Source of the DNA: a virus
Taxonomy: Duplodnaviria > Caudoviricetes
DNA length: 64,000 bases
IMG/VR virus record: IMGVR_UViG_3300048893_000079
Location: 18,528-82,527 of that record
Strand: one strand, 5' to 3'
Shown: piece by piece, positions 2,889-39,577 of the stretch
Numbering within the stretch: the first letter of the stretch is position 1
How the letters are laid out: every line of letters starts with the position of its first letter
Notes under the pieces: model-generated
The model's input: only the letters and a program-made list of their open reading frames with translations
Told to the model about the DNA's origin: nothing
Database searches by the model: none
Translations under genes and position numbers: made by a program

Positions 2889-3264
2889 CGCGATCAAAGC
2901 AGTCTTCCCGAACGCGGCTGATCCCGGTGTTCTGTTCTGCTACGATGGCACGATCTACAATCCGAGCGGCGGCTACATCCCGCCACAACTGATCGCGCAC
3001 GAGGAAGTCCACGAGCGTCAGCAGGCGGTGATCGGCCCGGTGAAGTGGTGGGACTATTACATTGCGAATCCAGCGTGGCGCTTCAACGAAGAACTCGAAG
3101 CGCATATCGTCGAGTATCACGACTTCATCAAGCGTCAGAAGAGCCGCCAGATGCGCCGAGATTATCTCGATGCCATTGCGCGTCGCTTGTCCGGCCCGTT
3201 GTACGGGAGCACGAGCACTTTCGGTGAGGCTAGACTTTTGATAGAGCGTGGCCGAAAGGCTTGA
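2854..3264 (+). CDS. Putative zinc metallopeptidase-like protein
   Basis: AHEEVHERQQ (HExxH) followed by FNEELEAH; GGGAG SD. Confidence 0.6.
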   Translation: MLIVDSNPPNFNAIKAVFPNAADPGVLFCYDGTIYNPSGGYIPPQLIAHEEVHERQQAVIGPVKWWDYYIANPAWRFNEELEAHIVEYHDFIKRQKSRQMRRDYLDAIARRLSGPLYGSTSTFGEARLLIERGRKA

Positions 3265-3658: not shown

Positions 3659-3739
3659 TGCGGAGTAGAGCAGCGGGAAGCGTAGCTCGTCGGTTTCATA
3701 CGCCGAAGGTCGGTGGTTCGAGTCCATCCTCCGCAACCA
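3659..3739 (+). tRNA. tRNA-Met(CAT), initiator-like scaffold
   Basis: Full cloverleaf: TGCGGAG/CTCCGCA, GAGC/GCTC, TCGGT-TTCATAC-GCCGA, GGTGG-TTCGAGT-CCATC, encoded CCA. Confidence 0.92.
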
Positions 3740-3743
3740 TTTT

Positions 3744-3819
3744 TGGAGCGTAGCTCAGTTGGTAGAGCGCCGGATTGTTAATCCGATGGTCGGTGGTTCG
3801 AACCCATCCGCTTCAGCCA
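3744..3819 (+). tRNA. tRNA-Asn(GTT)
   Basis: 76-nt cloverleaf: TGGAGCG/CGCTTCA, anticodon loop TTGTTAA, G73, encoded CCA. Confidence 0.95.
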
Positions 3820-5464: not shown

Positions 5465-7042
5465 ATGCGCGAAGAGCGCCAATACGAAGACTGGGAAGTC
5501 CTTGATCGTCGGCTAGTCGGCCGATGGGGTGAAGGGATCGCAGTTTGGTGGTTGGTGCTCGAAGAACAGAGCCCTCGCGGCATCTGGAGACCGTTCATCA
5601 CCGAACTCGACGGTCAAACGATCAAGCAATGGCCCGATTGGATGCCGTTGCCGGGTTCGCAGTACCAATTTCTCACTTCGCCGGTCTTCGAGACGATGTA
5701 CGCGGGTCCGCGCGGCACCGGCAAGTCTGAAATGCTCTTGATGGACTTCGCGAAGGATGTCGGCAAGGGCTTCGGCTCGAATTGGCGCGGAATTCTCTTC
5801 CGGCAGCAACTCGGCGACCTTGACGAGATGGTTCGCAAGACCGAGACGCTTTTCAAACCGATTTTTCCCGGATTTCACTTCAAACTTTCGAAAGCGGACT
5901 ACGCGGCGTGCTGGCCGAGCGGTGAGCAGCTTCTTTTCCGTCACATGCTCGACGAAACCGAGTACAAGGAATATCACGGCCATCAATATCCGTGGATCGG
6001 TTGGGAAGAGCTTACGCAGTGGGGCGATCTCAAAGCGTACAAGCTCATGTTCTCGTGTTGCCGTCCAACTGGTCCCGGCGTGCCTGTTCGCATCCGCGTG
6101 AACACAAATCCGTCCGGCCCAGGCCACAACGTCGTGAAAAAGCGTTTTCAGTTGCCCGGAATGTTCGGCAAGATCATTCGCGAGCCCGGCGAAGCTCCAC
6201 GCGTCGCGATTCAGTCGTCACTCAAGGAAAATTTCGTCCTGCTGCACGAAATGCCGAACTATGCGCAAGTCGTGCGCTCCGCCGCGCTCTCGAAGGCGCA
6301 AGCCGACGCGTGGGCGACAGGAAACTGGGATGTCACCGAAGGCGGCATGATCGACGACCTCTGGCGCGCGAATGTTCACGTCATTCCGAATTTGGTGTCA
6401 AAACAGATTCCCGCGAGTTGGAAATTCAGTCGTTCGTACGACCATGGTCAAGCAAAACCGTTTTCGGTGTTGTGGTGGGCCGAAAGCAACGGCGAGCCGA
6501 TCAGATTGCCCGATGGACGCTGGATCGGACAAATTCGCGGCGATTTGCTTCTCTTCATGGAATGGTACGGCACAAACGGTCAAGAAGACACCGGATTGCG
6601 TATGTCCACCGCGAAAATCGCGCAAGGCGTCAAAGATCGCGAACGCGACAACGGAATTTCGGCGCGCGTGCTCGGCGGACCCGCCGACACCGAACTTTGG
6701 TCAAAATCGAACCAAGGAACCGGCCGCGCGCCAATTGACGACTTTCAGGACAAGCAAGTGTTCTGGGATCAAGCCGACAAGTCGCACGGGTCGAGAAAAC
6801 GTGGATGGACGCTTTTGCGCGAGCGCGTCGCGGGCTCGATCCCGAATTTCGACGGCACGCGTGAAAAACCCGGAATTTTTGTCTGCGTTCGCAACAAGCA
6901 CTGGCTTGAACTCGTTCCGACGATGCCGCGCGCTCTCGATGACCCGGATGACATTCCGAAGACGTACGAGGACCATCCGGCGGACTCGACGCGGTATAGA
7001 CTGACTTGGGAGTTCATGGGAATGGCACGGAGGGATTTTTGA
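5465..7042 (+). CDS. terL: Terminase large subunit
   Basis: Walker A YAGPRGTGKS, Walker B WIGWEELTQ, motif NTNPSGPGH, RNase H-like nuclease SYDHG...EDHPADSTRY. Confidence 0.93.
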   Translation: MREERQYEDWEVLDRRLVGRWGEGIAVWWLVLEEQSPRGIWRPFITELDGQTIKQWPDWMPLPGSQYQFLTSPVFETMYAGPRGTGKSEMLLMDFAKDVGKGFGSNWRGILFRQQLGDLDEMVRKTETLFKPIFPGFHFKLSKADYAACWPSGEQLLFRHMLDETEYKEYHGHQYPWIGWEELTQWGDLKAYKLMFSCCRPTGPGVPVRIRVNTNPSGPGHNVVKKRFQLPGMFGKIIREPGEAPRVAIQSSLKENFVLLHEMPNYAQVVRSAALSKAQADAWATGNWDVTEGGMIDDLWRANVHVIPNLVSKQIPASWKFSRSYDHGQAKPFSVLWWAESNGEPIRLPDGRWIGQIRGDLLLFMEWYGTNGQEDTGLRMSTAKIAQGVKDRERDNGISARVLGGPADTELWSKSNQGTGRAPIDDFQDKQVFWDQADKSHGSRKRGWTLLRERVAGSIPNFDGTREKPGIFVCVRNKHWLELVPTMPRALDDPDDIPKTYEDHPADSTRYRLTWEFMGMARRDF

Positions 7043-7602
7043 TGGAACGTGAGTTCAGTTACTTCGGCGAGTTCATGAAGGACCATTTTCGCGACTCCGT
7101 GACGCGAGACACGTTCGACATGCTCTGTGGCAAGCCACTAGGCTTCGGGATCGGCCGAATCGTGTTCGAGCACGCGACGGACAAGTCGCTCGTGCTCAAG
7201 TTCGAAGAAAGTGCGGGCTCGTTCCAGAATATCCATGAATGGGATTTGTGGAAGCAGCATGCGCACGCTGGAACATCGACAGCCGGTTGGTTGGCGCCGT
7301 GCGTTTCGATCTCGCCAAATGGCATTGTGCTGATCCAGAAACGGACGAAGAAGGTGCCGTGGGATTTCAAGTTGCCGAAGATGATACCGAATGTTCTCGA
7401 CAGCGACTTGAAACGCGACAATTGGGGTCTCTACAAGGGCAAGCTCGTCTGTCACGACTACGGTCGGCACAACGCGATTCACGCGGCTTCGAAGGCTCGC
7501 GGAAGCGGCAATATGGTCAAAGCCCGCTGGATCGACGCCAGCGCGCGGGGGTACTTCATCCCGGTCTACGGCAATTCGGGCGCGACCGGCAAGGTGATCT
7601 AG
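7042..7602 (+). CDS. Minimal Ser/Thr protein-kinase-like protein
   Basis: Ordered motifs LGFGIGRIVF, LVLK, QNIHEW, DLKRDNWG, CHDYG. Confidence 0.75.
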   Translation: MEREFSYFGEFMKDHFRDSVTRDTFDMLCGKPLGFGIGRIVFEHATDKSLVLKFEESAGSFQNIHEWDLWKQHAHAGTSTAGWLAPCVSISPNGIVLIQKRTKKVPWDFKLPKMIPNVLDSDLKRDNWGLYKGKLVCHDYGRHNAIHAASKARGSGNMVKARWIDASARGYFIPVYGNSGATGKVI

Positions 7603-7609
7603 CCTCTGA

Positions 7610-7663: not shown

Positions 7664-9391
7664 ATGGCCAAGAACGTCAAGCCTTCAGCGAAAGCAGCCG
7701 CCGCCGAACAGCCCGATCCGTCGGTGAAGTCGCTTGCGTATCTCGAAATGGAATCCAAGTGGGCGATGATTATCACGCTCATGGGTGGCACTGATGCGAT
7801 GCGCATGGCCGAGCGCACGTACCTCCCGCAGCACGCGGAAGAAAGCAACGAGAATTACAACGAGCGTCTGAACCGCAATACGCTGTTCAATATGTTCGAG
7901 TTGACGCTCGACAGTCTTGTCGGCAAGCCGTTCGTTGAGCCGATCAAGCTGAACTCCGATGTGCCGGAAGAGATCGCGAACGAAGACACTGGCTACTGGA
8001 AAAACATCGACCTCCAAGGCGCGAGCCTGACGAGCTTCGCACGCGAGTGGCTTCGTGATGCCATCGCAAAAGGTTTCTCGCACATCCTGATCGACATGCC
8101 GAAACTCGACCCGGCCGAGAAGGCGACGCGCACGCTCGAAGACGATCTCAAAGAAAACCGCCGTCCGTACTGGACGCTAATTCGCCCGGAGAACATGCTC
8201 TTCGCGTACGCCATCGTGAAGAACGGCGTCGAAGTTCTTCAGCACGTTCGCATCGCGGAAGTCGAAACCGTGATGGACGGCTTTAGGGAAGTCACGAAGC
8301 AGCGCATCCGCATTCTCGAACCCGGCCGTTGGGAGCTTTGGGAGCTTCGCAAAACCGACGAGCAGAAAGACCCGATTTGGGTGAAGATCGAAGAGGGCTT
8401 GTCCGATCTCGACTACATCCCGCTGGTGACGTTCTACGCGAACCGCTCCGGCTTCATGACATCCAAGCCGCCGCTGGAAGACCTCGCGCATTTGAACGTG
8501 CGTCACTGGCAGTCCACATCGGACCAAATCAACATTCTGACCGTGGCGCGTTTCCCGATGCTCGCGGTTTCCGGCGCGCAGATGGTGCAGGGTTCGCAAG
8601 AGAACATGGCCATCGGTCCGCGTCAGTTGCTTGCTACGCGCGACGCGAACGGCAAGTTCTACTACGTCGAGCACACCGGCAAGGCGATTGGTGCCGGTGA
8701 AACCGATCTCGAAAAACTCGAAGACAAGATGGCTTCGTGGGGCGCCGAATTCCTGCGCCGCAAGATCGGTGGCCGCACAGCGACCGAGCGCGCGTTGGAC
8801 TCCAGCGAAGCGATCTCGCCGTTGAAGGACATGAGCCTGCGCTTCATGGTCTCGGTCAATCAGGCGCTCAAGATCACCGCCGACTGGATCAACAAGTCTG
8901 ACGGCGGCACGTGCCTTATCAACACCGACTTCACCGAGGAAGACGCGAACACCGCTGCGATCAACACGCTGACGGAAGCCCGCAAGCGCGGCGACATCTC
9001 GCGTTGGACTTGGCTGGAAGAAATGAAGCGCCTCGAAGTTCTGGCCGCCGACCTCGACACCGAGGAAGAGATGGATCAGATCGAGTGGGAAGCCACGAAC
9101 CTTATCGTCAAGCCGAGCTTCGTCACGGCGAGCGAGCAGATTCGTTCGGTCGAGACCGTCAACAACGCAGACGACAGCACCGCCACGGATATTCTCAACG
9201 ACGTTCCGGGCGGCGGCGACGACAATACGGACAATCCTGCTGGTGGCAATACACCGGCAAAAGCTCCGTCAACTTCGAAGCCCGCAGCAAAATCGAAACC
9301 CGGCACGTCGCCGAAGGGCGTGAAGAAAAAGAAAGTGCCGGTGGACATCAATCACCCGGTCAAGGGCAAAGCAAAGCTTATCGGATCGTAA
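7664..9391 (+). CDS. Portal protein (DUF4055-type) with low-complexity basic C-terminal tail
   Basis: Position after terL; YLPQH..E..E.Y..RL, YIPLVTFY, PPLEDLAHLN.HWQS motifs. Confidence 0.88.
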   Translation: MAKNVKPSAKAAAAEQPDPSVKSLAYLEMESKWAMIITLMGGTDAMRMAERTYLPQHAEESNENYNERLNRNTLFNMFELTLDSLVGKPFVEPIKLNSDVPEEIANEDTGYWKNIDLQGASLTSFAREWLRDAIAKGFSHILIDMPKLDPAEKATRTLEDDLKENRRPYWTLIRPENMLFAYAIVKNGVEVLQHVRIAEVETVMDGFREVTKQRIRILEPGRWELWELRKTDEQKDPIWVKIEEGLSDLDYIPLVTFYANRSGFMTSKPPLEDLAHLNVRHWQSTSDQINILTVARFPMLAVSGAQMVQGSQENMAIGPRQLLATRDANGKFYYVEHTGKAIGAGETDLEKLEDKMASWGAEFLRRKIGGRTATERALDSSEAISPLKDMSLRFMVSVNQALKITADWINKSDGGTCLINTDFTEEDANTAAINTLTEARKRGDISRWTWLEEMKRLEVLAADLDTEEEMDQIEWEATNLIVKPSFVTASEQIRSVETVNNADDSTATDILNDVPGGGDDNTDNPAGGNTPAKAPSTSKPAAKSKPGTSPKGVKKKKVPVDINHPVKGKAKLIGS

Positions 9392-9409
9392 AGACCGTGG
9401 AGGGTCGTC

Positions 9410-9952
9410 ATGACGGTGATTGTGTGGGACGGCAAAGTTCTCGCTGCCGATAGCCGGTGTTCTGACACGCATCTCATGCATGTCACCAACGTCCGCAAAA
9501 TCTTCAAGCTGAAGAACGGCGCGCTGCTCGGCACGGCGGGCGACAACGATGATCGCGATGTCCGCGCCATCCTCGCCACCGCTTCGCCGCGCAAGATGCC
9601 GCCGCGCGATAAGCTCGCTGCCACGAAGACGGCGTTCTCCGGGATCATGATTTTTCCGAAAGGCCACGTGTTCGTCATCGACATCGACTGGGAAGAGCAC
9701 GAAAGTGAAGGAGAGTGGCGCGCGAGCGTGGATGCGATCAGCGAGAAGTTCGTCGCGGTCGGCCATGGTTCGCAATTCGCGTACGGCGCGCTCGAACACG
9801 GCGCCTCGGCGGCCGAAGCAGTTCGCGCCGCATGCAAGCGCGATTTGACTTGTGCGCTGCCGGTTCAGCAAGGGTCTTTCGAAGTGCCGCCTGCGCCTGA
9901 GATTCCGCCGGTCCCGTTGGCGAAGCCCAAGCCCAAGCGCGCGAAGAAGTGA
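9410..9952 (+). CDS. HslV/proteasome-beta-like Ntn hydrolase
   Basis: N-terminal M-T nucleophile, LAADS, RKIF, LLGTAG, AVGHG..FAYGAL, EAVRAA. Confidence 0.75.
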   Translation: MTVIVWDGKVLAADSRCSDTHLMHVTNVRKIFKLKNGALLGTAGDNDDRDVRAILATASPRKMPPRDKLAATKTAFSGIMIFPKGHVFVIDIDWEEHESEGEWRASVDAISEKFVAVGHGSQFAYGALEHGASAAEAVRAACKRDLTCALPVQQGSFEVPPAPEIPPVPLAKPKPKRAKK

Positions 9953-9955
9953 TAT

Positions 9956-9989
9956 TTGCTGAACAGCGAATATGCGGTAAAATCGCGTT
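9956..9989 (+). promoter_or_regulatory. Candidate promoter for terS
   Basis: TTGCTG-N16-TAAAAT; very short leader; AAC(A)GCGA/TCGCGTT arms around the -10. Confidence 0.4.
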
Positions 9990-10571
9990 ATGACCAAAGC
10001 CATCACGACCACTCGCTCCAAAACTTACGAGATCGTTTCCGCCGATCAGAATTTCAGCGCGAAGCGCGCGAAGCTGTTCCTCCAACTTCTCGGAGAGATC
10101 GGCCGCGTTCCTGAAGCTGCGCAATTGGCTGGATTCAAAAATACGAACCCGCTGTACTATCGCAAGAAGACCGACCAAGAATTCGCCATTGCGTGGGCCG
10201 AAGCGATTGAGCGCGCCGGAGATCGCTTCGAAGCCGAAGCCGTTCGTCGTGCGATCACCGGGGTCGAAGAGGATGTCTACTATCAGGGCGAGATCGTCGG
10301 CCAAAAGACGAACTACTCCGATGGCCTTCTCGCGAAGCTTCTGGACGGCTCGAAGCCGGACAAGTACCAGCGCAAGCGCGATGCCGCCGCGCCGACGATC
10401 AATGTCCGCGTTGGCCTCGCTGTCGTGCCTATGACCAATCCCGGCCTTGAAGATTGGGAGAAAGGCAGCATCGAACTGCACCAAGGTCTTACGCAAGTCG
10501 TGGACGCCACCGCGACCCCTGTCGCGCCGGAGCCGCTGCCCTCGACCGCCCTCAAAGTCGTGCGGACTTGA
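9990..10571 (+). CDS. terS: Terminase small subunit
   Basis: HTH (V..AAQLAG), FA.AW.EA, EAEAVRRAI.GVEE.VYYQGE.VG....YSD.LL..LL....PDKY. Confidence 0.8.
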   Translation: MTKAITTTRSKTYEIVSADQNFSAKRAKLFLQLLGEIGRVPEAAQLAGFKNTNPLYYRKKTDQEFAIAWAEAIERAGDRFEAEAVRRAITGVEEDVYYQGEIVGQKTNYSDGLLAKLLDGSKPDKYQRKRDAAAPTINVRVGLAVVPMTNPGLEDWEKGSIELHQGLTQVVDATATPVAPEPLPSTALKVVRT

Positions 10572-10596
10572 CGGCCTGGGGATCGGCCCGTATTTT
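10568..10596 (+). promoter_or_regulatory. Promoter for the small basic protein/scaffold operon
   Basis: TTGACG-N17-TATTTT. Confidence 0.6.
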
Positions 10597-10608
10597 AGCT
10601 TTTGAACT

Positions 10609-10625
10609 ATTTGGGTGATCCAAAT
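10609..10625 (+). promoter_or_regulatory. GUGAU-loop hairpin covering the start codon
   Basis: ATTTGG-GTGAT-CCAAAT, overlapping ATG 10624. Confidence 0.6.
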
Positions 10626-10854
10626 GTCCAAGATGCACGCAAAAATCCGCAACGCGCTCCCCGACAGCGACTTTGCTCTCATTGTCCACCACAACGGCAA
10701 AGAGATTCGTAAGTATCCCGACAACGATCTCCCGCATGCCCGCGATGCGCTTTCACGCGCAGCCGCAATCGGTGGCTCCACAGAAGCGAAGGTTGACCGC
10801 AAGGTCTACGCAAAGTATCCAGCACTGAAGAAGCGTCACGACGCACGGAAGTGA
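10624..10854 (+). CDS. Small basic protein (DUF6582-like)
   Basis: LPDSDFAL...KYP..D..HARDALSR motif. Confidence 0.7.
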   Translation: MSKMHAKIRNALPDSDFALIVHHNGKEIRKYPDNDLPHARDALSRAAAIGGSTEAKVDRKVYAKYPALKKRHDARK

Positions 10855-10874
10855 TGGTTGAGGACATCGTACAT

Positions 10875-10906
10875 CTCAGGGTGATCCTGGGCGGACGGTG
10901 ATTGTC
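10875..10906 (+). promoter_or_regulatory. Tandem GUGAU-loop hairpins in the scaffold leader
   Basis: CTCAGG-GTGAT-CCTGGG and GACG-GTGAT-TGTC. Confidence 0.6.
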
Positions 10907-10921
10907 GGAAAGAGAACTACA

Positions 10922-11752
10922 ATGACCAAATTTGCAGAGACCGTCGATTCGCTCGACGGCGTTGCCGAAGAGTATCGTCCCGCGTATGCGGCCGGTGCAG
11001 ACGGCAAGTTCACACTCAAGCCGGAGTTCAAGCCGTTCGCGACCGCGATCACCGGTTTGAATGAAACGCTCGGTCGTACGGACTTCAACATGAAGAAGGC
11101 CCAGAAAGAAGCTGCGGATCGTCGCGGCGTGCTTCAGGCATTCGAAGAGTTGATGACCGCGCAGGGCATCACAGTCGAAGACGGCAAGGACGCGAAGGAA
11201 GCGTTGAAAGCCCACATCGACGATCTCGTTCTCAAAGCGAAGAACGGTGGCGAACTCAAAGTCAACATGGACGCGATCCGCAAGGACTTCGAGAAGAAAG
11301 CGAAAGAACTGACGGACCTCGCCGATGGCAAGATCAGCGTCATGTCGAAGTCGCTGGAGAAGTATCTCGTCGGCCAGCAAGCCAACGCGGCACTCGCGAA
11401 GGCCAAGGGGTCGGTCGATCTTCTGCTCCCCATCGTGCGCAGCCAAGTTAAGGTCGTGCAGGACGGCGAGGACTACGTGGTCCGCGTCGTTGATCCGAAA
11501 ACCGGCGACGTTCGCACGGACGGAAAGGGCGGCTTCCTTGACATCGAAGGTCTCGTCGCCGAGATGAAGCTGAACACGACGTATGCCCGCGCTTTTGAAA
11601 GCGAAACCAAGGGCGGCGGCGGTGCGCAGCAGCAGAAAAATAACTCGCAAACTCGCACGGTTACGGATCGGGACAAGATGACCCCGACCCAGAAAATCGC
11701 GGCCGGTTTGACGAAGGGCCAAGTCGAGCACGGACTGGGCCGTCAGAAGTAA
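10922..11752 (+). CDS. Capsid scaffolding protein
   Basis: Coiled-coil, K/E-rich, directly upstream of MCP, ends MTP.QKIAAGL. Confidence 0.75.
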   Translation: MTKFAETVDSLDGVAEEYRPAYAAGADGKFTLKPEFKPFATAITGLNETLGRTDFNMKKAQKEAADRRGVLQAFEELMTAQGITVEDGKDAKEALKAHIDDLVLKAKNGGELKVNMDAIRKDFEKKAKELTDLADGKISVMSKSLEKYLVGQQANAALAKAKGSVDLLLPIVRSQVKVVQDGEDYVVRVVDPKTGDVRTDGKGGFLDIEGLVAEMKLNTTYARAFESETKGGGGAQQQKNNSQTRTVTDRDKMTPTQKIAAGLTKGQVEHGLGRQK

Positions 11753-11775
11753 AAGGATCATGCTAGGGGGCGGGG

Positions 11776-11804
11776 TTGACAGGAGTTTTCCTTGCCCCCA
11801 TCAT
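11776..11804 (+). promoter_or_regulatory. MCP promoter within a long inverted repeat
   Basis: TTGACA-N17-CATCAT inside GATCATG..GGGGGC / GCCCCC..CATGATC (11755-11808). Confidence 0.6.
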
Positions 11805-11810
11805 GATCTC

Positions 11811-11970
11811 GAATTTCGGTGCTCCGTAGTTCATTCACCGTGATGGTGAGGGATGAAAGAGCGGGTCGATTCTTCGACGGGTGATCCGCCGAGATCGCGC
11901 AAGAAGTCCCAACTGGGAGCCTCTGGCCGGTGTCGTTGAAAAGTTTTTTGGATCAACCAGGAGAAAGACC
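11811..11970 (+). ncRNA. Structured 160-nt MCP leader with two GUGAU-loop hairpins
   Basis: TCACC-GTGAT-GGTGA, CGG-GTGAT-CCG, GTCGA/TCGAC and TCCCA/TGGGA hairpins. Confidence 0.55.
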
Positions 11971-12948
11971 ATGACCTCAGTTACCCTCACGGAATCCGCC
12001 AAGCTGGCTCAGGACGAGCTTGTCGCAGGCGTGATCGAGAACATCATCACCGTCAATCGCATGTACGAAAAGATTCCGTTCGACGGGATCGAGGGTAACG
12101 CCCTCGCGTACAACCGCGAGAATTCGCTTGGCCCGGTTGCGACCGTTGGCGTTGGCGACACGGACGGCACACTCGGCGCATTCGCGACGGGCGGTGTCAA
12201 CCAGACGGAACGCGAAGCCGCGAAAGACCCGGCGACGTTCACCCATCTGACCTCCTCGCTCACCACGATCATCGGTGACGCGGAAGTCAACGGTCTGATC
12301 CAGGCAACTCGTTCCGGCGACGGCAACGACCAGACTGCGATCCAGATCGCGTCGAAGGCGAAGGCGGCTGGCCGCAAGTGGCAAGACCTCTTCATCAACG
12401 GCGACGGCACGAACGCGACGTTCCCCGGCCTGCTCGCGCTGGCCTCGGCCAACCAAGAAGTTGATACCGGCTCGGCTGGTTCCAACCTCTCGTTCGACAT
12501 CATCGACAACCTGACCGACCTCGTGGTCGATAAGGACGGCGAAGTCGATTACCTCGCGATGCATGCCCGCACGATCCGCAGCTTCAAGGCGCTGCTTCGT
12601 GCGCTCGGCGGCGCCCACATCACGGAAGTGATGGAACTGCCTTCCGGTGCGACGGTTCCCGTCTACCTCGGCATTCCGATCTTCCGTAATGACTGGATTC
12701 CGCTGAACCAGGACACCCCGGACGCGTCGTACCACGTGGCGACCACGATCTTCGCCGGTACGTTCGACGACGGCTCACGCCAGCACGGCGTTGCCGGTCT
12801 GACCGCCAGCGAAGCCGCTGGTATCCACATCGTCGATGTCGGCGAGTCGGAACGTCAGGACGTTCGCATCTGGCGCATCAAGTGGTACACCGGTCTCGCT
12901 CTGTTCAGCGAGAAGGGTTTGGCCATCGCGCCGGGCATCAAGAACTAA
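11971..12948 (+). CDS. Major capsid protein (HK97 fold, YuA/RDJL-like)
   Basis: SVTL.ESAKL.QD.LV.GVIE.I...PFDGIEGNALAYNRE; RIKWY.GLALFS; AGGAG SD. Confidence 0.92.
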   Translation: MTSVTLTESAKLAQDELVAGVIENIITVNRMYEKIPFDGIEGNALAYNRENSLGPVATVGVGDTDGTLGAFATGGVNQTEREAAKDPATFTHLTSSLTTIIGDAEVNGLIQATRSGDGNDQTAIQIASKAKAAGRKWQDLFINGDGTNATFPGLLALASANQEVDTGSAGSNLSFDIIDNLTDLVVDKDGEVDYLAMHARTIRSFKALLRALGGAHITEVMELPSGATVPVYLGIPIFRNDWIPLNQDTPDASYHVATTIFAGTFDDGSRQHGVAGLTASEAAGIHIVDVGESERQDVRIWRIKWYTGLALFSEKGLAIAPGIKN

Positions 12949-13026: not shown

Positions 13027-14010
13027 ATGACCGCAACTCCGTACCTCCTCCAATTGCCCGATCCCGACACGTCGCCCGCACCTTCGGACGGCCCTGATAC
13101 TTTCGTGGTCGTGGCTGAGTCCAGCGCAGACGCAAAAGCTTTCGTGCAAAATTTTGCCAGCCGCAAGGTTTGGGCGAATGTCACACCGGCAACGCTCGCC
13201 GAAGCGGCGGATATGTCCGGCTGGAGCCTGCGCGTTGCAGTCTTCAATCCGAGCGACGATTCCAGCTATCTCGACATCACGGTCACGAACGCCAACCAGA
13301 TCGAGCGCGTTGTGCTCGCGTCCGGCGTTCTGACATCAAGCTCGAACTACGGCACGAGCGATACTGTCACCATCGGCACTCGCGTTTACAGCTTCGTCGC
13401 CAGCCCGGCCGTGGACGGCGACGTGAAGATCGGCGGCACAGAAGCCGCGTCGATTCTCAATCTCGTTCATGCGATCAACGGTTCGGGCGGCACGCCTGGG
13501 ACCGACTACGTGGTCACGGCACCTGATCCGAACGTCACCGCAGTGGCGGCTTCCCACACCGCGACAGTCACCGCGCGCTCCACGCTCAATGCAGCCACCG
13601 CGAATGCGGTTGCGACCACAGCATCCATGACGACCGGCAACGGCGCGTGGGGCTCGGCCACATTGACCGGTGGAGTGGATAGCGAGAACAAGGTGTCCTC
13701 GTTGGCCGAACTCATGGTTGCCGCGCTCCTGCCCGCGCTGCACGCATCGTTCGACAACAGCACGCACACGCTGACGATTTCCACGATTGCCGACAACATC
13801 GGCGATCACAAGGTTCATGTCGAAGTTGTGCCTCCGCAACTCAATCCCGTTTCTCCGACTGGTGTTGCGACGAAGGCTGGCCAGAGTGTGCCCGGCTTCG
13901 TCAGCACGATCACGGACGGTGGCATTGCGGGTGCTGCGCTCACAGTCATTCTCGCTGCCGACACATACGGCGTTCCTAAACTGGTGGTGCAGGCGCGCGT
14001 TTTGCAGTAA
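13027..14010 (+). CDS. Virion structural protein with an inserted ~120-aa shared domain
   Basis: Follows MCP; T/A/S/G-rich; domain shared with 15968 and 17852. Confidence 0.7.
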   Translation: MTATPYLLQLPDPDTSPAPSDGPDTFVVVAESSADAKAFVQNFASRKVWANVTPATLAEAADMSGWSLRVAVFNPSDDSSYLDITVTNANQIERVVLASGVLTSSSNYGTSDTVTIGTRVYSFVASPAVDGDVKIGGTEAASILNLVHAINGSGGTPGTDYVVTAPDPNVTAVAASHTATVTARSTLNAATANAVATTASMTTGNGAWGSATLTGGVDSENKVSSLAELMVAALLPALHASFDNSTHTLTISTIADNIGDHKVHVEVVPPQLNPVSPTGVATKAGQSVPGFVSTITDGGIAGAALTVILAADTYGVPKLVVQARVLQ

Positions 14011-14037
14011 CAAGTTCAACAGTCCTGGGAGGGTCTA

Positions 14038-14685: not shown

Positions 14686-14729
14686 GGGTGTAGGCTGATC
14701 GCCTAACCCGAATTTTGTGGAGCATCCCG

Positions 14730-14971: not shown

Positions 14972-15280
14972 ATGGCCGCGATCAAGAATCGTATCGACCC
15001 CCGGAAGCACGACGGCCACGGCACGAACTCCGAGCCGCTTATGACCGGTCATGGTGCTCCGGCTTCAGCAAGCGGTCGCGGCAACGAACCGATGCCGAGC
15101 ACCGGCAAGATTCTCGCGAACAACTGGGGCGCGCAGCGTCTCAAGAAACTGGGATCGACCGTTGGCGCGACGCAGCCCGGTACGGGCCAGGATCGTTTCA
15201 CTCGCCCGATTGACTCGGCCACGGCCCAAATTCCTCCGGCCGGTCTCGGCAATCCTCGCGGTCAGCGGAGCATGGACTAA
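14972..15280 (+). CDS. G/P/R-rich disordered protein
   Basis: Tightly packed ORF with typical codons. Confidence 0.6.
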   Translation: MAAIKNRIDPRKHDGHGTNSEPLMTGHGAPASASGRGNEPMPSTGKILANNWGAQRLKKLGSTVGATQPGTGQDRFTRPIDSATAQIPPAGLGNPRGQRSMD

Positions 15281-15459
15281 TGCCTCTGCCAGCCTCCAAT
15301 TCCACGAAAGCAGGAAAGCGCGCAAACGCCAAATTCGTCATGCACGAATTCAAGGGCGGCCATCTGCATTCGGGCAAGAAGAACGGCCCGGTCGTGAAGG
15401 ACCGCAAGCAAGCCATCGCGATTATGCTGTCCGAAACCGGTCAGTCCAAGCAGAGTTGA
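15280..15459 (+). CDS. 59-aa basic protein (DUF6496-like), below the ORF-track cutoff
   Basis: Hand translation MPLPASNSTKAGKRANAKFVMHEFKGGHLHSGKKNGPVVKDRKQAIAIMLSETGQSKQS; TAATG coupling. Confidence 0.75.
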   Translation: MPLPASNSTKAGKRANAKFVMHEFKGGHLHSGKKNGPVVKDRKQAIAIMLSETGQSKQS

Positions 15460-17851: not shown

Positions 17852-19810
17852 ATGACCAACCTCGTCAAGAAATTGGACTCGAACGTCACCGGCCTCCGTT
17901 ATGCGGAAGAGACCACCATCGGAGTTCTGCCCGTCGCCTCCAGCCAAATTTGGTATCCTCTTGAGCCGAACACGTACAACGATTTTGGTGCGAACACCAA
18001 GACTGTCGCCCGCATGCCGATCAACCCTTCGCGTCAGTTGCGCAAGGGTGTGTTGACTGACCTCGACCCGGCCGCCGGTTTCTCCAACGACTTGACGCAG
18101 GATGGTCTCACTCGTTTGCTCCAGGGCTTCTTCGTCGCGAACCTTCGCGAGCCGGAAGATTCCCAGTCGTTCAACAACAACACCACGCCCATCGCATCGG
18201 TCGTGCATTCTTCGCACGAGTACACCGTCACGAACAACAATGTGTTCGGTTCGCTCGCTGCCAACGATTTGCTCTCCGCAAGTAAGTTCGCCAATTCGCA
18301 GAACAACGGCCTGAAGGTTGTGACATCCACGTCAGGCGGTTCCGCTGCCGTCGCGGCCACCAACACGCTTGTGTCCTCGGCCAACTATGCGGCCGGTGAG
18401 ACCGTCACAATAGGCGGGTTCACGTACACCTTCCGCGCCTCGGTTGCCGTCGCGTACGAAGTTCTTGTCGGCGGTTCAGAAGCCGCGTCGATGTTGAACC
18501 TCCATAACGCGATCAACGCATCTGGCGGCGTCCCCGGAACGGACTATAGCGTCCCGGCTCAGAACCCGTACGTTTCCGCGACGGACGATGCCACGCACAC
18601 CATCACTGTGACGGCGCGCGTTGCCGGTGCTTCCGAGAATAGCGTTGGCACGACCGAGACCGCATCGAATGCGGCCTGGACGACCACGACTCTTGCCGGT
18701 GGTTCGGACGCGACTGCGACGACCATTGTTGTCACGGACACGAATGTCGTGGACGAGACCCCGACTTCCGCTGCTCGCTTGGAGCAAGTTGGCCGTCAGG
18801 GCGCGTCCGGCGATCTCACGATCACCAATGACAGCGTGAACTTCCCGCACATGGACGCGACGGTTCTCGACTTCACCACGCTGCCGCTCATTGCCGGTCA
18901 GTGGATTTGGATCGGCGGCGACGTTACCAACAGCGCGTTCGCGACTGCTGCGAACAACGGTTGGGCGCGTATCCGCTCCATCGTCACGCATCGCCTGACG
19001 TTCGATAAGACTTCGAGCGAGATGGTCACGGATAACGGCGCTGGCAAGACTGTGCAGTTCTTCTTCGGCAAGGTGCTTCGCAACGAAGCGACGCCCGCCA
19101 TTCAGAAGCGCCGCACGTACACCATGGAGCGCACGCTCGGCAATCCCGACAGCGACAACCCCACGAAGCCGCAAGCCGAATACATCATGGGCGCGGTCCC
19201 GAACGAGATCACGTTCAACATGACGACGGCCGAAAAGGTCACGCTCGACATGACGTTCCTCGGAACGGACTACACGACCATCGACACGACCGGCACCATC
19301 CTGTCGGAAGCGATTGGCGCCACGGCTCCGACCATCGTTTCGGAAGACGCGTTCAATACGACCTCGCACGTTGTCCGCGCGAAGATGTCGGTCCTGAGTG
19401 ACACTGACTCGGCCCCGACCTCGCTGTTCGCGGAAGTGACCGAATTGAAGTTCTCGGTCAAGAACAACGACAAGGCCAACAAGGCGATTGGCAAGCTTGG
19501 CCCGTTCGAGATCACCTTCGGCTTCTTCGAGGGTTCGGGCTCGGTGCAGGCTTACTTCGACCAAGTTGCCTCGGTGCAGGCCGTGCGCACGAACGCCGAT
19601 GTGTCCATCGACTTTGCGATGGCCAAGAACAACCAGGGCATCCTGTTTGACTTGCCGTTGCTCACGCTGAACACGAAGGGCTTGGACGTGAAGATCAACG
19701 AGCCGATCATGTTGCCGATCAACATGACCATGGGCGCGGACCGCAACTTCGATCACACGATGTTGATGGAGTTCTTTGACTATCTGCCGGACCTCGCGAT
19801 GCCTGTCTAA
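17852..19810 (+). CDS. Major tail tube protein with an inserted shared domain
   Basis: KLDSNVTGLRYAEE, LEPNTYNDFG, INPSRQLRKG; precedes the chaperone and TMP genes. Confidence 0.85.
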   Translation: MTNLVKKLDSNVTGLRYAEETTIGVLPVASSQIWYPLEPNTYNDFGANTKTVARMPINPSRQLRKGVLTDLDPAAGFSNDLTQDGLTRLLQGFFVANLREPEDSQSFNNNTTPIASVVHSSHEYTVTNNNVFGSLAANDLLSASKFANSQNNGLKVVTSTSGGSAAVAATNTLVSSANYAAGETVTIGGFTYTFRASVAVAYEVLVGGSEAASMLNLHNAINASGGVPGTDYSVPAQNPYVSATDDATHTITVTARVAGASENSVGTTETASNAAWTTTTLAGGSDATATTIVVTDTNVVDETPTSAARLEQVGRQGASGDLTITNDSVNFPHMDATVLDFTTLPLIAGQWIWIGGDVTNSAFATAANNGWARIRSIVTHRLTFDKTSSEMVTDNGAGKTVQFFFGKVLRNEATPAIQKRRTYTMERTLGNPDSDNPTKPQAEYIMGAVPNEITFNMTTAEKVTLDMTFLGTDYTTIDTTGTILSEAIGATAPTIVSEDAFNTTSHVVRAKMSVLSDTDSAPTSLFAEVTELKFSVKNNDKANKAIGKLGPFEITFGFFEGSGSVQAYFDQVASVQAVRTNADVSIDFAMAKNNQGILFDLPLLTLNTKGLDVKINEPIMLPINMTMGADRNFDHTMLMEFFDYLPDLAMPV

Positions 19811-38295: not shown

Positions 38296-38543
38296 TTGCG
38301 TTTCTCCAATGGCATGACACCGAGCTTGCGAAGCTGGTGCCGTACTTCAGATGCCTTGTTCTTTGCGCCGCGATAATCGCTCGGCGTGGTCGGGAATGTG
38401 CTGTAGTGCTCTACGCCGTCCGGCAGCGTGAAGATGCACCGCATGTGCTTGCCGCCCATCTCATAGCGGAACTTGCGTATGCCGTGCTCCGCTAAGACGC
38501 GCTCGATGGCGTCGCGATAGGGCTTCTGTCCGCGTGTGGTCAT
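38292..38543 (-). CDS. HicA-like RNase-fold protein
   Basis: GGKH and TPSD.RG..N motifs, 83 aa, basic. Confidence 0.6.
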   Translation of the reverse strand: MTTRGQKPYRDAIERVLAEHGIRKFRYEMGGKHMRCIFTLPDGVEHYSTFPTTPSDYRGAKNKASEVRHQLRKLGVMPLEKRK

Positions 38544-38761
38544 CGCCCGGTCCATGCTCTGGAATCGAAGACTACGCGCCACCGGAATGTATCGGTGCGA
38601 ACATCCTCGTATTTGATGACCTTGCCCGCGTTGACTACATCGGCGCCGCTGCGACGCATGAGACTGCGCACTTCGCGGGCCTCGTCGAAGTAGTCGCCTC
38701 GATCCGTTTGCAGCAGATCGAGGGCAGATACGACTAGCGAGTACGGCGTGCGGATGGTCAC
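38540..38761 (-). CDS. Hypothetical protein
   Basis: GTGA coupling; hand-called start. Confidence 0.5.
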   Translation of the reverse strand: MTIRTPYSLVVSALDLLQTDRGDYFDEAREVRSLMRRSGADVVNAGKVIKYEDVRTDTFRWRVVFDSRAWTGR

Positions 38762-39175: not shown

Positions 39176-39577
39176 TTAATCGCGGACGCGGCAGCTTGAA
39201 CGCTCCAGCCCATTGCACGGACCCTCGTGCGGGCCACGCCGCGTGCAGAACTGAGCGTTAGGATCGCCCTTCTGAAAGAAGCTCGGCGACGCCGCGAGCA
39301 CAAGCTCGGCCTGCCGCTCGTAATCCGGGAAGTAGCTGTACTTCGCGACGATCAACCAGCACACCCATTCGACGAAGATCGTGAGCGAGGGGATGTTGAT
39401 GCCGGTCTTGCCGACAAGGTAGACGCCGAAGAAGAGCGTGGCGAAGACGAAAATCCAGATCGTGGCGCGATCCTTCACGACCGCATCACCCTGATAGACG
39501 GTGGATGCCGCCATCGGGATGCAGGCCGCAGCGAATAGGAAGGAGCCGATAGCTCCAATGATGTTGAGCAAGATCAT
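39176..39577 (-). CDS. PQ-loop/SemiSWEET-like three-helix membrane protein
   Basis: IGAIG..LFA...IPM followed by two more TM helices. Confidence 0.55.
   Translation of the reverse strand: MILLNIIGAIGSFLFAAACIPMAASTVYQGDAVVKDRATIWIFVFATLFFGVYLVGKTGINIPSLTIFVEWVCWLIVAKYSYFPDYERQAELVLAASPSFFQKGDPNAQFCTRRGPHEGPCNGLERSSCRVRD

Follow-up and report, generated by a model that had tools for sequence, protein, structure and literature searches.

GNGAU-capped hairpins in the scaffold and capsid gene leaders of YuA-related phages: a candidate loop-specific RNA control element

Introduction

How tailed phages balance the output of scaffold and capsid proteins is poorly understood. In phage P22 the synthesis of the scaffolding protein is reportedly autoregulated post-transcriptionally and in a manner coupled to assembly; this has been known since 1985 (Casjens & Adams 1985; Wyckoff & Casjens 1985), and to our knowledge its RNA target has never been defined. 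The present study concerns a small RNA hairpin, capped by the pentaloop G-N-G-A-U (GNGAU), that recurs in the 5' leaders of the scaffold and major capsid protein (MCP) genes of a tailed phage (Caudoviricetes) and of many of its relatives. The stretch analysed, referred to as the window, is the 3' 64 kb (64,000 nucleotides, positions 18,528 to 82,527) of the 82.5-kb IMG/VR virus record IMGVR_UViG_3300048893_000079; coordinates are those of the window unless another genome is named. Comparison of the genomes shows that the motif is conserved with covarying stems, that it is confined to leaders and that both the loop and the second stem pair are sequence-specific. With a rough probability of 0.55, the GNGAU hairpins are a conserved cis-acting, loop-specific post-transcriptional control element of the scaffold and capsid mRNAs. 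An earlier reading of the window, made from its letters alone (the sequence-only reading), had proposed the same logic of assembly-coupled post-transcriptional scaffold control as in P22; the P22 scaffold, however, is unrelated in sequence, and RNA binding by the scaffold is here only a candidate activity.

Several other described elements resemble the motif in part. The boxB hairpins of lambda and P22 are phage-encoded short stems in promoter-proximal leaders, with a GNRA-like pentaloop, G being its first base, to which a protein binds; their loops are of the form GNR(N)A (GAAAA, GACAA) and they lie in early operons next to boxA. In the GNGAU hairpins the A for the sheared G.A pair stands at loop position 4 rather than 5, and the targets are late head genes. 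No match to boxA (GCUCUUUA-like) with up to one mismatch was found on the + strand in 10560-10925 or 11805-11970, and no N-like protein was identified among the head-module proteins, the only ones scanned. The E. coli thrS operator and the dual-hairpin substrates of ANTAR proteins share the tandem arrangement of like-looped hairpins, one of them abutting the Shine-Dalgarno (SD) sequence in thrS, and the pair is read by a dimer; by analogy, the tandem architecture of the phage element would fit a dimeric reader. The loops differ in size and sequence, since thrS has 7-nt anticodon-like loops and ANTAR substrates have hexaloops with A1/G4, and in the phage no terminator overlaps the hairpins and neither an ANTAR protein nor a synthetase takes part. 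STAB-SD, known from Bacillus cryIIIA and phage SP82, is a linear polypurine 5' mRNA stabiliser of the GGAGG type, SD-like and complementary to the 3' end of 16S rRNA; strongly expressed genes carry it in their leaders, a long way upstream of the start codon. The conserved unit in the phages is instead a hairpin, and its covariation breaks the rRNA complementarity in more than half of the copies.

The closest described RNA is from Pseudomonas phage YuA, in which ONT-cappable-seq mapped a transcription start site at 39396 (Putzeys et al. 2024, PMC10914365); by our placement this start lies 7 nt past a TATACT -10 element. The 5' untranslated region (5'UTR) of the major head gene gp56, at 39396-39519, is reported as a non-coding RNA (ncRNA) candidate conserved in M6 and LKO4, and it accumulates as a short RNA that the authors class with premature-termination products (PMC10914365). 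This region holds two GUGAU hairpins, at 39426-46 and 39456-76; because the mapped, accumulating RNA includes both, the element is, at least in YuA, present in RNA. The ncRNA candidate occupies the same capsid-leader position in a related phage, with both start and short RNA detected, whereas the accessible part of that report describes no hairpin motif, loop consensus or scaffold-leader copies, and no conservation beyond the genus Yuavirus (PMC10914365). The YuA scaffold leader carries a GUGAG and a GUGAU hairpin (38507-27) downstream of the near-consensus promoter TTGACC-17-TACAAT. The fragment annotated as a sigma-54 (-24/-12) promoter in YuA (38392-38570; L078 193-371) includes this sigma-70 promoter and the scaffold-leader hairpins, and TGGCGGGTGATCCGC within it fits GG-N10-GC. 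A sigma-54 promoter was nonetheless ruled out as the source of the motif, as the spacing does not hold generally and the promoter spacer would have to accommodate the conserved bases.

At the gathering score Rfam 15 returned only tRNAs for the window, and at E values up to 10 it gave two chance-level matches on the - strand in 10500-12050; literature searches for the loop found nothing relevant. The sequence-only reading had recognised no described family, and the absence of an Rfam match agrees with this. The hairpin is a real, conserved RNA motif that is apparently undescribed, and is a candidate new family for catalogues of structured phage RNAs.

Conservation and covariation of the hairpins

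Relatives were collected by their MCP, giving 71 loci from IMG/VR and 27 loci from GTDB genomes (loci numbered with the prefix L, whole genomes with G), and enrichment was counted in 68 non-redundant relatives from which the window and an identical twin contig were left out. The relatives carry hairpins capped by GTGAT, GCGAT, GAGAT or GGGAT, on unrelated stems, at the same two places. The first is just upstream of the scaffold gene, often with 2-4 tandem copies, and the second, where 2 copies 20-30 nt apart are usual, lies 45-130 nt ahead of the MCP gene. MCP leaders contain 37 GNGAT hairpins, distributed over 29 of the 68 loci, against 0.84 +/- 0.89 expected from shuffles, and the scaffold-leader zone contains 33 against 1.38. 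In the coding sequences the corresponding numbers are 0 (2.96 expected) for the MCP and 1 (2.65 expected) for the scaffold. The six commonest pentaloops in the leaders, GTGAT, GCGAT, GAGAT, GTGAG, GGGAT and GTGAA, are all of the form GNGAN and none stands out in the coding controls; GTGAT ranks first upstream of the capsid gene.

The stems covary under this constant loop. Of the 8 pairs in the homologous MCP-leader hairpin, 7 have changed on both sides, none of 500 shuffles reaches the observed covariation, and the signal is register-specific, being lost when the register is slid. The three closest relatives, namely the window, L007 (87% MCP identity) and L080 (83%), have wholly different stems and the same loop. 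The scaffold-leader stems are CTCAGG/CCTGGG and GACG/TGTC in the window, GTAGCCGG/CCGGCTAC and AGCGG/CCGCT in L007, and ACGACGC/GCGTCGT, TCGG/CCGA and CAGCGA/TCGCTG in L080, while the MCP-leader stems are TTCGACGG/CCGCCGAG, CTCCTCGG/CCGGGGG and TTAGG/CCTAG, respectively. The sequence-only reading had seen a fixed loop on variable but paired stems, clustered in the head module, and had looked to covariation in the leaders of related phages. The fixed loop on paired stems proves to be conserved across many related phages, the clustering is in sense-strand leaders of head genes, and the stems covary.

The covariance model R1, derived solely from 72 hairpins of relatives, was run unfiltered on both strands of the window. 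Its top six matches are at 10873, 10607, 7586, 11832, 33778 (coding strand) and 11873, so that five of the six best are + strand sites that had been listed beforehand, four in leaders and one, at 7586, borderline. In five whole relatives, 9 of the 13 best matches fall in the leaders of scaffold, MCP or packaging genes. Model matches in coding sequence (33778 in the window; L107-L109) look like chance, as do GNGAU hairpins at record positions 3107 and 3842. In YuA, weaker matches stand before the terS gene gp50 (33449, 33488).

Anatomy of the motif and possible recognition of its loop

Consensus statistics were taken from 75 leader hairpins with three inner Watson-Crick pairs, and the 72-hairpin set agrees in pattern. 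The second pair is G-C in 85%, and the closing pair is G-C in 44%, C-G in 29% and A-U in 25%. Loop position 2 (N2) is U in 57%, C in 24%, G in 11% and A in 8%, and different N2 bases are mixed in single phages (e.g. L052, L065, L082, L008, L012, L013). In the second MCP-leader hairpin, GNGA tetraloops (L007, L019) replace GNGAU pentaloops (L008, L012, L013) at the aligned position, and the GNGAU loop may represent a GNRA-type fold with G fixed at position 3 and one extra 3' nucleotide. The element consists of a 4-11 bp stem with a second pair that is almost always G-C, a variable closing pair and the pentaloop G-N-G-A-U. Because the loop and the orientation of one stem pair are conserved while the rest varies freely, a sequence-specific reader is indicated rather than stability alone.

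The same statistics bear on an account that dispenses with a dedicated reader, in which the hairpins would be purely structural, stable and of GNRA type, and would shield or insulate two short transcripts with strong expression, as with the CUUCGG hairpins of T4 intercistronic regions. It is true that GNRA-type loops are intrinsically favourable, that GAAA and GUGA are also top tetraloops in the leaders and that about half of the relatives do without the motif. Stability alone, however, fails to explain the strict G3 of the loop (no GNAAU), its extra U, the 85% G-C orientation of the second pair and the tandem arrangement, and the YuA capsid leader has another kind of hairpin at its very 5' end. 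The scaffold and capsid genes of YuA form separate short units bounded by promoter and terminator, as far as the accessible part of the YuA report goes (PMC10914365), which would suit insulation. On balance this account seems unlikely.

The composition of the loop and closing pair also decides how far the hairpins may be regarded as SD-like ribosome-binding elements, whose loops or flanks would recruit the 30S subunit as standby sites or act as mRNA stabilisers of the STAB-SD type. The sequence GGUGAUCC is an exact complement of the 16S rRNA 3' tail sequence GGAUCACC, just 5' of CCUCC, and the commonest variant at each variable position yields a perfect 8-nt complement. Nevertheless, N2 is not U in 43% of the copies, which places a mismatch in the middle of the 5-bp helix, and covariation of the closing pair among G-C, C-G and A-U (not G-C in 56%) keeps the hairpin and breaks the rRNA complementarity. 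U at N2 is uncoupled from G-C closing pairs (Fisher p = 0.34), and GNGA tetraloops as well as GNGAG and GNGAC variants substitute at homologous sites. A true SD distance is found at four sites, namely window 10614 (before ATG 10624), YuA gp64, the scaffold gene of L057 and the L040 homologue of the window's gene for a 76-aa protein, and the genes served are the most highly expressed; most copies, by contrast, are 45-130 nt from the start codon. Pairing with the 16S tail was rejected as the driver of conservation, since N2 varies and the closing pair covaries, the two being uncoupled, and complementarity is seen only at single sites such as 10614. Ribosome recruitment of this kind is accordingly considered improbable.

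Three other sources of the conserved letters were tried and set aside. A loop pseudoknot with the AUCAAC box upstream of the SD is not supported, as the box does not turn to AUCGC in GCGAU phages. In C-G-closed hairpins GAU+G creates an AUG, but an upstream open reading frame (ORF) beginning there is not conserved (in L033 it meets a stop after 4 codons), and a Dam site fails because GATC occurs only with the G-C closing pair.

The hairpins of the window

Five copies in the window, H1 to H5 (starting at 10608, 10875, 10894, 11834 and 11873), carry the pentaloop G-N-G-A-U on a stem of at least 4 pairs, and all are on the + strand. As in the relatives, they stand in the scaffold leader, in tandem and abutting the SD, and in the capsid leader, 45-130 nt upstream of the gene. 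The distal scaffold-leader hairpin H2 (CTCAGG-GUGAU-CCTGGG, 10875..10891; 6 pairs, one of them G.U) is the best R1 match in the window (10873, 19.4 bits, E 0.007), and homologous tandem hairpins with other stems are present in L007, L018, L080, L023, YuA and others. The proximal hairpin H3 (GACG-GUGAU-UGUC, 10894..10906; 4 pairs, closing pair G.U) has a weak stem and scores under the R1 listing threshold; its 3' end is 15 nt before the scaffold ATG, a position that agrees with that of the SD-abutting hairpin of the relatives.

In the capsid leader, H4 (TTCACC-GUGAU-GGTGAG, 11834..11850; 6 pairs, C-G closing pair) gives an R1 match of 15.3 bits. H5, or hairpin A (TTCGACGG-GUGAU-CCGCCGAG, 11873..11893), forms 7 of 8 pairs with one A.C mismatch; its core at 11878-11888 has only 3 contiguous pairs and the longer stem extends over 11873-11893. 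It gives 14.4 bits under R1 and is the homologue of a conserved GGG-N-GAUCC block aligned in 8 leaders. The G-C second pair (GG...CC) is present in H1, H2 and H5, and H3 (CG/GU) and H4 (CC/GG) deviate from it. The position of a second capsid-leader hairpin, hairpin B, is identified by alignment at 11907..11924 (+ strand) as TCCC-AACT-GGGA followed by a GCCTCT box; relatives have a GNGA(U) loop there and this phage does not. The stem of hairpin B covaries, with compensatory changes at 5 pairs in the alignment, and it is flanked by AGAAGGC before and an GCGCCUCU(N2)GCC box after (window 11900-11930; L008, L010, L012, L013, L019).

H1 (t-ATTTGG-GTGAT-CCAAAT-g, 10608..10626; 6 Watson-Crick pairs and 1 wobble, loop GUGAU at 10615-10619) spans the ATG at 10624 of the 76-aa protein gene, and the GGGUGAUCC that it contains is also at SD distance from this ATG. 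It gives an R1 match of 17.8 bits (E 0.02). No counterpart exists at the homologous 76-aa gene in L007, L012 or L005, and because of this lack of conservation H1 is either lineage-specific or just an SD with a flanking repeat.

These five sites are what stands of eight hairpins that the sequence-only reading had listed, most of them as covering or preceding head-gene translation starts, and to that extent its observation is for the most part correct. A sixth, at 7586-7606, is a borderline case in which R1 gives 15.9 bits (E 0.08); its place is upstream of the portal promoter, where the preceding ORF comes to its 3' end. The copy placed over the start of the protease gene (9409-9426) has only 3 pairs including a G.U, encodes Thr-Val-Ile and has no model match, and no GTGAT is found at the protease start of L009, and the inclusion of the protease in the proposed regulon was wrong. 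The TGATC variant at 14686-14709 has a different loop. Nor is location at translation starts a property of the motif, since most copies do not cover them.

Promoter-like sites and probable transcription of the two leaders

A consensus scan found 2 promoter-like sites against 0.3 expected in shuffles. TTGACG-17-TATTTT (10568..10596, + strand) would start a transcript of the 76-aa gene and scaffold gene about 5 nt before H1, and TTGACA-17-CATCAT (11776..11804, + strand) would serve the capsid transcript. For the YuA promoter equivalent to the capsid site the start site is mapped, according to the accessible part of the YuA report (PMC10914365). The capsid site lies within an inverted repeat at 11755-11808, GATCATG..GGGGGC[..TTGACA..]GCCCCC..CATGATC, whose loop contains the -35 element and spacer. 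The same layout with another stem, AAAGGGTGG[TTGACT..]CCCACCCTTT, is seen in L007 (3345-3400), and the structure around the capsid promoter appears to covary between the two.

The position of the hairpins shortly downstream of promoter-like sites, and of the YuA start site, raises the alternative of an element acting on transcription, either boxB- or put-like antitermination hairpins or part of an attenuator placed just after each late promoter. Their size and pentaloop are like those of lambda and P22 boxB, and a further twin pair follows a promoter and precedes the gene before terL in the phage of L004. The GNGA+U loop is, however, unlike the GNR(N)A of boxB, the leaders contain no boxA-like sequence, and no terminator-like site was found in 10450-12050. 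The accessible YuA data point both ways: the short capsid-5'UTR RNA is classed with premature-termination products, whereas processive antitermination is disfavoured by the shortness of the units, with terminators following both the scaffold and the capsid gene (PMC10914365). Action at the level of transcription is judged quite unlikely.

Position relative to the ribosome-binding site

The 3' end of the scaffold-proximal hairpins falls 10-18 nt short of the ATG, where the SD begins on its 5' side, and a factor bound there could block or assist 30S binding. Only H1 and a few relatives (L057, L066) have the SD or AUG of the regulated gene inside the hairpin; the other copies are upstream of the SD. 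In this respect the GNGAU copies generally differ from a translational operator of the coat-protein type, with its start codon or SD in the hairpin.

For the capsid gene, the first-hairpin 5' arm contains an anti-SD CUCC in 13 of 31 MCP leaders, belonging to two clades, and arm-SD complementarity beats 95% of arm shuffles in 9 of the 31. Folding predictions suggest that forcing hairpin A frees the SD in leaders of the L007/L012/L013/L023 type, with e.g. a change from 0.00 to 0.51-0.78. In the minimum-energy folds of the window and L007, which are folding predictions only, the hairpin 5' arm and loop pair with GGAUCAA-CCAGGAGAA at the ribosome-binding site (RBS); in the window it is the arm and loop of H5 that pair with the capsid RBS region GGATCAACCAGGAGAA (11950..11965, + strand). 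Just 5' of the capsid SD many leaders have an (A/G)UCAAC box: GGATCAACC in the window (11945-11965), GCATCAACC in L008, TCATCAACT in YuA and GAATCAACA in L020.

Proposed regulatory mechanism and candidate readers

The favoured explanation is that of a loop-specific control element acting post-transcriptionally. Scaffold and MCP mRNAs carry it in their 5' leaders, on the sense strand and past the promoter, for the most part as two tandem copies, across a large group of siphophages that share the scaffold-capsid module, including YuA, M6 and many uncultured relatives. A trans-acting reader would recognise the loop and the G-C pair and would use the hairpins to set translation and/or stability for the two head proteins that are needed in the largest amounts. 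The proximal hairpin of the scaffold leader directly adjoins the SD, and in the capsid leaders of several clades the 5' arm could alternatively pair with the RBS. Candidate readers are a protein common to the head module (scaffold or capsid) or a universal host machine. The regulon idea of the sequence-only reading is plausible in this form, as the data fit an RNA element read by a sequence-specific factor.

Several observations weigh against this explanation. Over the whole genome, GNGAT hairpins with stems of at least 4 pairs number 8 versus 8.8 in dinucleotide shuffles, and those with at least 6 pairs number 4 versus 1.3, a figure reached by 11 of 200 shuffles; because this single-genome enrichment is not significant, the case rests on the relatives. 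The motif is missing from about half of the relatives though all have homologous scaffolds, and it is therefore dispensable or replaceable. Some relatives have only GG-GNGA(U/G)-CC with 2-3 bp stems, in which primary sequence may be of greater importance than the hairpin. Counts of G.U versus A.C stem pairs, used as a test of the folding strand, are 34 versus 32, and 1 versus 1. A switch at the RBS, tried as a general model, was rejected, being absent from the window and many other leaders with an overall p = 0.058.

The genome-wide count is also the ground on which the window copies might be dismissed as coincidental hairpins plus one SD, the more so as other pentaloops reach up to three copies with 6-bp stems, on the other strand of the window genome. 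All comparative evidence contradicts this, namely enrichment and covariation in the relatives, the R1 matches and the loop specificity, and chance is an extremely unlikely explanation. The 77 GTGAT on the + strand have stems of at least 4 pairs in only 4 cases, all inside the 1.25 kb of 10608-11850. The comparison with shuffles that the sequence-only reading had proposed came out divided, the genome-wide count not exceeding shuffles and the leaders of the relatives being enriched, with coding controls of 0-1.

As to the identity of the reader, a tentative possibility is that a head-assembly protein, either free scaffold or unassembled capsid, binds the tandem loops on both mRNAs and tunes their translation in an assembly-sensing feedback. 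If true, this would provide the first defined RNA target for control of scaffold/coat stoichiometry, and the feedback would be conserved in phages from metagenome-assembled genomes (MAGs) binned to many bacterial phyla. The motif is sharply defined and simple and is found on exactly the scaffold and capsid mRNAs, in a very wide phage group that includes the culturable Pseudomonas aeruginosa phages YuA, M6, PAE1 and LKO4. The question is directly testable because the motif is defined, the phages are culturable and the YuA leader is known as a transcribed short RNA.

The sequence-only reading had also named, beside free scaffold, two small proteins as possible readers, the 76-aa protein (10624) and a basic protein with a DUF6496 match (15280), and had extended their control to the Ntn protease. 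The start of the 76-aa gene inside a hairpin would suit autoregulation, but that hairpin is absent from the homologues, and the copy at the protease start, with 3 bp, is an unconserved coincidence of coding sequence. By searches whose sensitivity is limited by the short length of both proteins, no homologue of either could be detected in G002, G003 or G005, three genomes that bear the motif and have a completeness of at least 95%, and the 76-aa protein is undetectable in YuA 1-50,000. Homologues of the latter were found only in L007, L012, L080, L005 and L040, and it is absent from G001-G005. Neither protein can thus serve as a general reader, and this alternative is very improbable. The DUF6496 match (E 3e-9) is a 59-aa protein encoded at 15280-15459, with a 66%-identical homologue at the equivalent place in G001 (13868-14017).

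Distribution and related leaders

Motif-bearing MCP relatives come from contigs of 43-68% G+C and also from MAGs assigned to Acidobacteriota, Proteobacteria, Bacteroidota, Chloroflexota and others, binning of phage contigs being unreliable. Scaffold family was considered as a correlate of motif presence and discarded, as all scaffolds fall in one homologous cluster and give no discrimination. In L110 (560-660; IMGVR_UViG_3300037722_000380, 13860-13960), twin GUGAU and GGGAU hairpins lie downstream of a sigma-70-like promoter and precede a 137-aa ORF directly upstream of terL, the second hairpin overlapping the ATG of the ORF.

Other leaders carry different signals. GNGAU is missing from the capsid leaders of low-G+C relatives (L051, L054-L056, L058, L061); a different leader is conserved among them, whose hairpins, for example CTGTC-GGA-GATAG and AACTATC-GGG-GATAGTT, are followed by TTAGACCCTAC. 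A Rickettsiales/alphaproteobacterial group has a repeated GGGNGAGCC with 2-3 flanking pairs only. In the capsid leaders of L092, L095, L099, L093 and L094 the boxes GGGTGAGCC, GGGCGAGCC and GGGGGAGCC occur 2-3 per leader and are almost stemless; they may be a degenerate or linear form of the GNGAU motif.

Genes of the head module

The head module of the window begins with terL (5465-7042), and the portal gene ends at 9391. These are followed by the genes for an HslV/proteasome-like protein (the Ntn protease, 9410-9952), a terS-like protein (9990-10571), the 76-aa protein (10624..10854, + strand; phrog_16160, without assigned function), the scaffolding protein (10922..11752, + strand, start codon ATG 10922; phrog_206) and the MCP, which is of the YuA/M6 type (11971..12948, + strand, start codon ATG 11971). 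The MCP has about 71% DNA identity to those of the Pseudomonas phages YuA, M6, LKO4 and PAE1 of the family Mesyanzhinovviridae. Upstream of the module, at 3659-3819, are two phage tRNA genes, for Met (CAT) and Asn (GTT).

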